Of a stretch of 31,741 nt of DNA, positions 23,382 through 23,849 are shown one piece after another (position 1 is the first letter of the stretch; each line of letters begins with the position of its first letter). The notes under the pieces are model-generated. The model had not been told where the DNA came from, ran no database searches, and saw only the letters and a list, made by a program, of their open reading frames with translations. This stretch comes from Ktedonobacterales bacterium. Its GTDB lineage: Bacteria; Chloroflexota; Ktedonobacteria; Ktedonobacterales; JADMIN01. Made by a program: the position numbers and the translations under genes. Location: positions 1 through 31,741 of the forward strand of contig DATEGV010000372.1 of NCBI GenBank assembly GCA_035279925.1. Reading direction: 5' to 3'.

Positions 23382-23395
<14 letters not shown>

Positions 23396-23849
23396 TGTGT
23401 TCTCTTTCATCTGAAGTAGTCGTAGGGTCAGACGACGGCTTGCGCGGTCGGCCCCGTGGTCGGCGTTCGGGTTGCTGCGCCTCAAAGCGCTCGAAGATCT
23501 CCTCGGGCTGGACGGTTTCACCCGCCATCACGAGGTAGGCTCGCGTCCAGAGGCTTGGGATCCGGGTCAATTCCGGAAACTCATCGCGCAGCGCCCGTGA
23601 CGTATACGCCTTCACCTGACATACGATTGAATGTGGGGCCATGGTTGGCGGCGCGAAGACCGCCAGATACACGCGATCGGGCAGTATCACGACGGCGACA
23701 GGCTCGAACTCCTGATCGCCCGACCGCTGCTCGATCAACTCTTCCAACCGCCGCGCTACCTCGCCGATCAGGCAAGGTTTCGCGCGCATCGGTCCCCACA
23801 CAAAGTGGTAGGTGATCCGCCATTCGTCGGAAGAATTGTGTATATCCAT
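23382..23849 (-). CDS. IS200/IS605 TnpA (Y1)-fold protein, catalytically inactive, with C-terminal AT-hook
   Basis: Aligns by eye along its length to TnpA (YHFVW.P, L.GEVA.RL.ELI, PDxVxL...PP, K..TSR.LR.EFP.L, LW.R.Y). HUH is R-V-Y and YxxxQ is [13 protein letters not shown] at aa 130-137. Overlaps the clpE start by 14 bp. Confidence 0.88.

Follow-up and report, generated by a model that had tools for sequence, protein, structure and literature searches.

The window analyzed here is a 31,741-nt stretch of DNA from an uncultured Ktedonobacterales bacterium of the phylum Chloroflexota (GenBank assembly GCA_035279925.1, contig DATEGV010000372.1, positions 1 to 31,741). On its reverse strand, a small gene encoding a catalytically dead protein with the fold of the IS200/IS605 transposase TnpA directly precedes a gene for a ClpE-like double-AAA+ unfoldase, and two palindromic elements, which we regard as predicted operators, lie at and upstream of the start of the pair. 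The features of the locus that bear on its interpretation are as follows.

21122-23395, reverse strand: ClpE-like double-AAA+ unfoldase gene, 757 amino acids (Pfam AAA_2, AAA, AAA_lid_9, ClpB_D2-small)
21590-21598, reverse strand: IGF loop of the ClpE-like protein, recognized from the sequence
23297-23386, reverse strand: N-terminal CxxC...CxxC zinc ribbon of the ClpE-like protein, recognized from the sequence
23382-23849, reverse strand: catalytically dead IS200/IS605 TnpA-fold gene (dead tnpA), an uninterrupted open reading frame of 155 amino acids plus stop
23439-23462, reverse strand: AT-hook RPRGRPRK, residues 130-137, in the disordered C-terminal tail of dead TnpA (predicted local distance difference test score, pLDDT, below 65 from residue 130)
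23484-23486, reverse strand: F122 at the catalytic-Tyr position, in helix alpha-D, from the profile alignment to Protein Data Bank (PDB) entry 2ec2
23667-23675, reverse strand: R59-V60-Y61 in place of the former HUH motif, from the alignment with H-I-H of 2ec2
23831-23871, reverse strand: predicted proximal dyad operator (core TGTAG-N15-ATACA, 23839-23863), a pattern match scoring 44.5 bits with a position weight matrix (PWM)
23867-23895, reverse strand: putative sigma-70-type promoter, TTGACA (23890-23895), 17 nt, TCTAAT (23867-23872), read from the sequence
23907-23947, reverse strand: predicted distal dyad operator (core TGTAG-N15-CAACA, 23915-23939), a pattern match with one mismatch scoring 45.2 bits with the PWM

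The initial annotation of the window had described an uninterrupted TnpA-like reading frame of 155 amino acids whose HUH motif had degenerated to PDRVYL, and its statements about the sequence of the window hold throughout. In domain searches, residues 10-116 scored 63.5 bits with the Pfam model Y1_Tnp (PF01797), whose cut-off is 23, and the protein scored 73 bits with NF033573, the IS200 model of NCBIfam, against a cut-off of 55; the RAYT model REP_Tyr_transpos (NF047646) scored 22.5 bits, far under its cut-off of 80. A family profile searched against the PDB retrieved Sulfolobus TnpA (2ec2 and 2f4f, E about 1e-22), IS608 TnpA (2a6m and 2vhg), and ISDra2. When aligned to Sulfolobus TnpA 2ec2, PDRVYL of the window falls on PDHIHL and RFEAQ on KYIEEQ, and at the family level LPDRVYLAV falls on MPDHIHLFV and ERFEAAQ on KKYIEEQ. 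Structural modeling led to the same fold: the AlphaFold2 model, built from 37 sequences, has a mean pLDDT of 86 (92-98 in the core) and comprises a beta-alpha-beta-beta-alpha-beta core, helix alpha-D (residues 115-125), and a disordered tail. The best 29 PDB matches of this model in a Foldseek search were all IS200/IS605 TnpA chains, with template modeling scores normalized by target of 0.74-0.79, and the RAYT structure 4er8 ranked 30th. Homology to Y1 HUH transposases is thus evident, and the window protein has neither the HUH motif, nor the catalytic Tyr, nor mobility. Neither a tnpB gene nor an insertion sequence (IS) end follows dead tnpA in the window, as had been stated initially.

The window genome (G000) also encodes a canonical IS200 TnpA with PDHVHL and an intact Tyr (contig C318:3113-3463), a truncated copy (C291:4853-5119), and a RAYT-like protein with EDHVHL (C310:366-596). 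The canonical and RAYT-like Y1 proteins of this genome provide an internal contrast to the dead copy.

Database searches returned 361 homologues of dead TnpA with 65-92% identity, most of them from metagenome-assembled genomes (MAGs) of Ktedonobacterales; all carriers are uncultured MAGs, and related genomes are non-independent samples in the comparisons that follow. Histidine is absent from both HUH positions in all 150 aligned homologues: position 59 is R in 144 (A, L, C, or F in the remainder), and position 61 is Y in 148 and F in 2. The loss of the catalytic Tyr, also noted initially, holds for the window protein and fails as a family trait, since the position is occupied by F in 101 homologues and by Y in 49 (n = 150); this variation looks like neutral aromatic exchange after the metal site was lost. 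Because the motif pattern is conserved in about 150 homologues, it lies far beyond chance.

The family is also distinct in its distribution and mode of evolution. Of 401 genomes sampled from the phylum, 31, in six families, carry an orthologue, always as a single copy. These orthologues score 113-239 bits, clearly separated from the ordinary IS200 copies of the same 401 genomes, which reach at most 83 bits. A search of 1.8 billion cluster representatives recovered only about eight dead-TnpA clusters before scores fell to those of canonical TnpA. Pairwise ratios of nonsynonymous to synonymous substitution (dN/dS) over residues 10-137 had medians of 0.12, 0.16, and 0.09 in three clades, values that are approximate because dS, at about 1.3-2, is near saturation, yet well below 1 and indicative of purifying selection. 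In a maximum-likelihood tree that included canonical TnpA, the 67 distinct dead sequences formed one clade (support 95/86), consistent with a single exaptation. The proposal in the initial annotation that the gene had been exapted rather than left to decay is supported by this combination of HUH loss, an invariant AT-hook core (see below), dN/dS of about 0.1, single-copy occurrence, and monophyly. With 361 database homologues and 92 genomic loci, the gene is not strain-specific, and its homologues are not intact IS copies. All the counter-findings that the initial annotation had set out in advance were checked, and none overturned its proposal. On this comparative evidence, we regard the family as one of single-copy, fixed, non-catalytic TnpA homologues and not as a product of decay.

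Two further features were observed within the family. C26 (23772-23774) and C77 (23619-23621) are nearly invariant (147 and 146 of 150, respectively) and absent from canonical TnpA, and they are accompanied by two invariant histidines, H15 (23805-23807) and H73 (23631-23633); these four residues may form a redox- or metal-sensing site. In one subclade (loci L020, L023, L082, and L085), an off-register HxH (DHVHILPDRVYV) stands six residues ahead of the former HUH position, which is probably coincidental.

The AT-hook reported initially at 23439-23462 proved to be both genuine and conserved. It combines an R-G-R-P core, basic flanks, and a disordered segment, and its G133-R134-P135 core is invariant in 150 of 150 homologues, embedded in a C-terminal tail that is disordered and variable around the hook. 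None of the 18 canonical TnpA proteins carries an AT-hook.

The partner gene shows the sequence features of a ClpE-type unfoldase. Its product has two AAA+ modules and a zinc ribbon, found as CxxC-X22-CxxC in 45 of 49 full-length Clp orthologues, as well as an [ILM]GF loop after an MTSN motif, at the place where ClpP-docking loops sit, in 48 of 49; no Clp_N domain was found in the first 120 amino acids. The most likely start of the clp gene is the ATG at 23395 (MPKCERC..., as in all orthologues), and the 14-nt overlap with dead tnpA is therefore real in the window. As a conserved trait, the overlap described initially did not hold: the gap between the two genes ranges from -14 to +183 nt in relatives (median 73), and the 14-nt overlap is peculiar to the window genome.

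What is conserved is the linkage itself. Dead tnpA lies directly upstream of the orthologous Clp gene, on the same strand, in all 92 loci inspected, comprising 30 of 30 from the genome search and 62 of 62 from a GTDB contig scan (uncultured Ktedonobacterales/Chloroflexota MAGs, a few of them mislabelled), with some loci common to both sets. A clp gene adjoins canonical tnpA in none of 18 canonical loci. Pairwise identities of dead TnpA and of the Clp protein are correlated (r = 0.92 over 435 non-independent pairs), and the pair has therefore been inherited as a unit. Besides clp, no neighbor is conserved; the genes flanking the pair in the window, listed below, vary among relatives.

19666-20955, reverse strand: MFS transporter, not conserved beside the pair in relatives
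24020-25327, forward strand: FIST-domain protein, divergent from the operon, not conserved beside the pair in relatives
25233-26996, forward strand: histidine kinase, divergent from the operon, not conserved beside the pair in relatives

No intrinsic terminator was found between or after the two genes. The 50-170-nt tnpA-clp spacers of relatives (for example, L005, L008, L009, and L013) contain GC-rich hairpins without T-runs, which may serve as processing, stability, or attenuation elements setting the ratio of regulator to Clp; the window has none.

The regions upstream of dead tnpA share a dyad of the form ATAATT-n-TGTAG-N15-CTACA-n-AATTAT, with the 41-nt consensus nATAATTnTGTAGnTnnATnnnATnnAnCTACAnAATTATn. 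The core TGTAG-N15-CTACA occurs with the variants TGTYG, CNACA, and ATACA, and as GTAT-N15-ATAC in the deepest clade; its spacer is 15 nt in every lineage, and AATT arms flank it. AATT is the classic target of HMGA-type AT-hooks, and the arms beside each half-site are consistent with minor-groove binding by the AT-hook of dead TnpA. The element begins 2-4 nt past a TATAAT box, and in the window such a box (23942-23947) directly precedes the distal core. Most orthologous loci have the proximal element at offset -14. In the window, it extends over the -10 box, the first five codons of the gene, and the position where transcription is expected to start. This overlap accounts for the conserved AT-rich N-terminal codons (ATG GAT ATA CAC AAT), among which ATA is a rare Ile codon in this genome. 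TTGACA-N17-TCTAAT is the putative promoter of the pair, and the T(T/G)GACA-N17/18-TATAAT arrangement is kept in relatives.

The dyad is both reproducible and specific to this locus. The extended pattern matched twice in the window and never in 100 shuffles, and 37 of 37 loci not used to build the PWM carry a site at the expected offset. Of 45 loci with two sites, 39 space them 75-78 bp apart. When the window genome, 3.6 Mb in size and 75% complete, was scanned with the PWM, only the two window sites were recovered; the next best match scored 15.3 bits. In five near-complete relatives, all six matches with up to three mismatches lie upstream of dead tnpA, against one match for a control pattern. 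No further site above 25 bits was found in 623 kb of flanking sequence or in 165 kb around canonical tnpA genes. A wider regulon was considered and rejected, as neither PWM nor pattern scans found more sites in the window genome or in the five near-complete relatives.

A similar palindrome was observed outside the family. Upstream of a canonical, HUH-intact TnpA in an uncultured Chloroflexi MAG (L112), TGTAG-N16-CTACA and a second CTACAGG surround a TATACT box about 60 nt from the start. As a trace of an origin of the operator in canonical Chloroflexi IS200 elements, this palindrome is suggestive only.

The dyad does not behave as a folded structure. Across 114 unique sites, the frequency of complementary mirrored positions is exactly that expected from column composition, without compensatory changes. 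Single-strand DNA folding is weak, with a median minimum free energy of -2.6 kcal/mol and a median z of -0.8; the window sites fold at -1.5 and -3.8 kcal/mol, the latter being the proximal one (z -1.7). In addition, the dyad symmetry extends into the AATT arm within the -10 box, which is not transcribed, and no Rfam match was found upstream at E up to 1. The idea that the element is a hairpin relic of an IS end was rejected in view of the absent covariation and weak folding. Without covariation, with weak folding, and with a symmetry that continues into a -10 box that is not transcribed, the element has the appearance of a duplex operator that is conserved in sequence and suited to a dimer, and not that of a structure-selected hairpin or RNA motif.

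Comparison with a sister family of the same order (f3) suggests what kind of control the dyad may exert. In f3, the orthologous zinc-ribbon clp gene is present in 27 of 28 genomes and the dead TnpA orthologue in none. All ten f3 loci inspected lack a TnpA-like reading frame ahead of clp and carry one or two CIRCE-like elements instead (e.g., TTAGCAATC-N9-GAGTGCTAG), which deviate from CIRCE at 2-4 of 18 positions and often stand right after TATAAT boxes. The ClpE-like gene thus appears to belong to the HrcA heat-shock regulon in f3, and elsewhere the TGTAG dyad, together with dead tnpA, occupies that promoter position. Taken from genome comparison, this is the pattern of a non-orthologous displacement of the repressor; the exchange between HrcA and dead TnpA could reflect either loss in f3 or gain elsewhere.

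CIRCE-like elements also occur in 3 of 91 dead-TnpA loci, two with both kinds of site and one in which a CIRCE-like element replaces the distal copy. L030 and L031 (family f2) carry TGTYG-N15-CTACA together with a CIRCE-like TTAGCAGAC-N9-CATTGCTAA upstream of dead tnpA, and L048 has a CIRCE-like site at about -120, the usual place of the distal TGTAG site. In our view, these three promoters are mosaics of the two control systems or intermediates between them. The hrcA gene itself is present both in f3 and in dead-TnpA genomes, and in the window genome it lies on another contig, close to a CIRCE element.

Contig C178, 2386-2412: CIRCE (CTAGCACTC-N9-GAGTGCCAA), about 430 nt upstream of the hrcA match
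Contig C178, 2842-3507: hrcA match

This proximity implies that an HrcA regulon coexists with the dead-TnpA system in the window genome. CtsR was considered as a controller in these genomes and rejected, because its domain (PF05848) was not found in five genomes.

Collectively, these observations lead us to propose, with more confidence than doubt, that the dead TnpA-fold protein is a dedicated autoregulated repressor of its own two-gene operon with the ClpE-like unfoldase gene, an operon of the heat-shock type. We lean slightly toward a broader claim, namely, that the TnpA fold, without catalysis and equipped with an AT-hook, constitutes an unrecognized class of bacterial sequence-specific transcription factors, one that in some Chloroflexota has come to occupy the place at a heat-shock protease operon where f3 has HrcA-CIRCE. 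The whole case for a repressor is comparative sequence evidence, and repression and stress induction are read mainly from the occurrence of CIRCE at the same position in f3. The initial annotation had left the choice between a regulator and an adaptor of the Clp operon; its proposal is supported in general, and the locus-specific dyad with its AATT arms and the CIRCE elements at the same f3 position favor, by inference, a DNA-binding regulator.

The following mechanism can be envisaged. TnpA proteins are obligate dimers, and a TnpA-type dimer would read the two GTAG half-sites, 20 bp apart from center to center, and each flexible AT-hook would enter the minor groove at the AATT arm beside its half-site. 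A dimer bound across the -10 box, the start codon, and the start of transcription would block RNA polymerase and thereby repress both the operon and the regulator's own gene, and there may be cooperativity between tandem sites spaced 75-78 bp apart. Repression would be lifted by proteotoxic stress; more speculatively, the co-encoded Clp machine may inactivate or degrade the repressor, a step suggested by analogy with the CtsR-ClpCP/ClpEP and HrcA-GroEL loops.

A different mode of action at the same locus is a minor but real possibility: the protein may bind nucleic acid there without acting as a duplex repressor, recognizing an extruded or open-complex single-stranded DNA hairpin or the mRNA 5' leader, with an effect on translation or stability, or serving as an activator. 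All solved TnpA-DNA complexes contain single-stranded hairpins, and the folding of the proximal window site at -3.8 kcal/mol (z -1.7) would also suit this mode. The transcript is expected to begin at about TGTAG, and the proximal site holds the Shine-Dalgarno-like stretch and the AUG; in one clade, the 3' arm of the site abuts a GGA Shine-Dalgarno-like motif. Hairpin and RNA recognition are nevertheless difficult to reconcile with pairing that merely follows base composition in 114 sites and with weak folding, and an RNA element would have no need of symmetry within an untranscribed -10 box. Sites that span the -10 box and the transcription start typically serve repression, as with CIRCE in f3.

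It is rather improbable that the action of dead TnpA is confined to protein contacts with the unfoldase, for which it might be an adaptor, anti-adaptor, substrate, or assembly factor, with the palindromes serving another regulator. Strict gene pairing, short gaps, the overlap in the window, and the coevolution of dead TnpA with the Clp protein would all suit such a role, and the disordered, variable C-terminal tail could be a degron. However, the invariant AT-hook is a minor-groove module with no known role in Clp adaptors, the operator with its AATT arms occurs only where dead tnpA does, and the neighborhood holds no other conserved regulator gene. We give almost no credence to an ordinary IS200 copy, whether active with an odd active site or a decaying relic kept for its promoter. 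Databases do annotate the reading frame as an IS200/IS605 transposase, one third of the homologues have Tyr at the catalytic position, and one small subclade has the off-register HxH. Against this stand the single copy and fixed synteny across several families of the phylum, the absence of HUH in 150 of 150 homologues, dN/dS of about 0.1 along the whole core, the gain and retention of the AT-hook, and the contrasting canonical TnpA of the same genome with its intact HUH and Tyr.

Several considerations weigh against the repressor proposal. Canonical TnpA proteins bind single-stranded hairpins, and we know of no TnpA-fold protein that reads duplex DNA; the poor folding and missing covariation of the sites argue against the TnpA hairpin mode and leave the mode of recognition unexplained. 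The co-occurrence of operator and gene is confounded by their physical adjacency, and another factor could bind the operator. A strict consensus promoter scan did not call TTGACA-N17-TCTAAT, and the 75% completeness of the window genome leaves room for a wider regulon there. Expression is weakly indicated by two contigs from soil metatranscriptome libraries, a 165-nt contig on 23538-23702 with 2 mismatches and a 293-nt contig from a relative (24 mismatches) that spans the gene junction at 23335-23627; such RNA libraries may contain DNA, and the contigs do not prove a single transcript.

Known systems share parts of this arrangement. IS200/IS605 TnpA proteins (IS608, ISDra2, and Sulfolobus; PDB 2a6m, 2vjv, 2xm3, 2ec2, and 2f4f) are homologous to dead TnpA in sequence and fold across residues 10-125; among the shared elements are the YHxVW and LWTRxY strands and the C-terminal helix alpha-D. 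Dead TnpA differs from them in lacking the HUH metal site, in having Phe in place of Tyr, in being single-copy and immobile, in lacking tnpB and subterminal hairpins, and in possessing an AT-hook tail and a fixed clp partner. RAYT/TnpA-REP proteins (PDB 4er8) are likewise single-copy, chromosomally fixed descendants of Y1 transposases, but they have retained HUH and Tyr, and their targets are REP hairpins, dispersed in hundreds of copies (PMC3333891, PMC8266576). Dead TnpA lacks catalysis, its cognate palindrome occurs only at its own promoter in six genomes, and it is not a member of the RAYT group. Conceptually, dead TnpA comes closest to the TldR proteins, RNA-guided repressors derived from TnpB that have lost nuclease activity (bioRxiv 10.1101/2023.11.30.569447). 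These, too, represent an IS200/IS605 protein without catalytic residues exapted as a repressor of host genes; TldR is guided by RNA, whereas dead TnpA presumably relies on protein-DNA recognition and its AT-hook.

Among regulators of clp genes, CtsR is the class III heat-shock repressor encoded by the first gene of ctsR-mcsA-mcsB-clpC in Firmicutes. Like dead TnpA, it is the product of a small regulator gene heading a clp ATPase operon, with operators over the promoter and presumed autoregulation. Dead TnpA does not belong to the CtsR family: CtsR is a winged-helix protein with a fold unrelated to that of TnpA, the box it recognizes consists of a direct heptad repeat instead of a 35-bp dyad, and it controls a regulon, whereas the dead-TnpA operator is locus-specific. 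The HrcA-CIRCE system resembles the dead-TnpA operator in its inverted repeat right after the -10 box, often in tandem, and in its apparent control of the orthologous ClpE-like gene in f3, but both the protein and the site (CIRCE, TTAGCACTC-N9-GAGTGCTAA) are different. RPRGRPRK fits the classical AT-hook core of HMGA-type proteins with a flanking AT-rich target; dead TnpA carries a single hook on a folded TnpA dimerization/recognition domain, in a bacterium. Our search of full-text literature found no description of a catalytically dead TnpA as a regulator or as linked to clp. Transposase-derived repressors and clp-operon autoregulators are known as kinds, and the dead-TnpA version appears to be new.

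Outside the family, further Y1_Tnp-like proteins without HUH were observed. P0134 (L126:4001-4438), on an archaeal contig, reads YPNAVYLE and has a very basic C-terminal tail; there is a 4-nt overlap between its stop and a radical-SAM gene. On a phage-like contig, P0149 (L127:3302-3727) reads EDGFVSLT and has an RNKRRR tail; P0131 (KPDYVYLY) and P0126 are two more. Such HUH-less, TnpA-like proteins with basic tails in archaea and on phage-like contigs suggest that exaptation of dead TnpA may have occurred several times and that the present family may be one of several cases.

The recruitment of transposases as transcription factors is a prominent theme among eukaryotes and has come to light in prokaryotes only recently, for TnpB in the form of TldR; to our knowledge, TnpA domestication is known only as the still-catalytic RAYTs. 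If our proposal is correct, dead TnpA would be to TnpA what the TldR repressors are to TnpB and would add a DNA-binding scaffold to the bacterial repertoire, showing how a binder of single-stranded hairpins was turned, together with an AT-hook, into a reader of a duplex operator. The system is small, consisting of a protein of 155 amino acids and a 41-bp site, and about 360 entries annotated as "IS200/IS605 family transposase" are probably regulators. It would also supply the regulator so far missing for a Clp heat-shock operon across a large group of soil bacteria, most of them uncultured.

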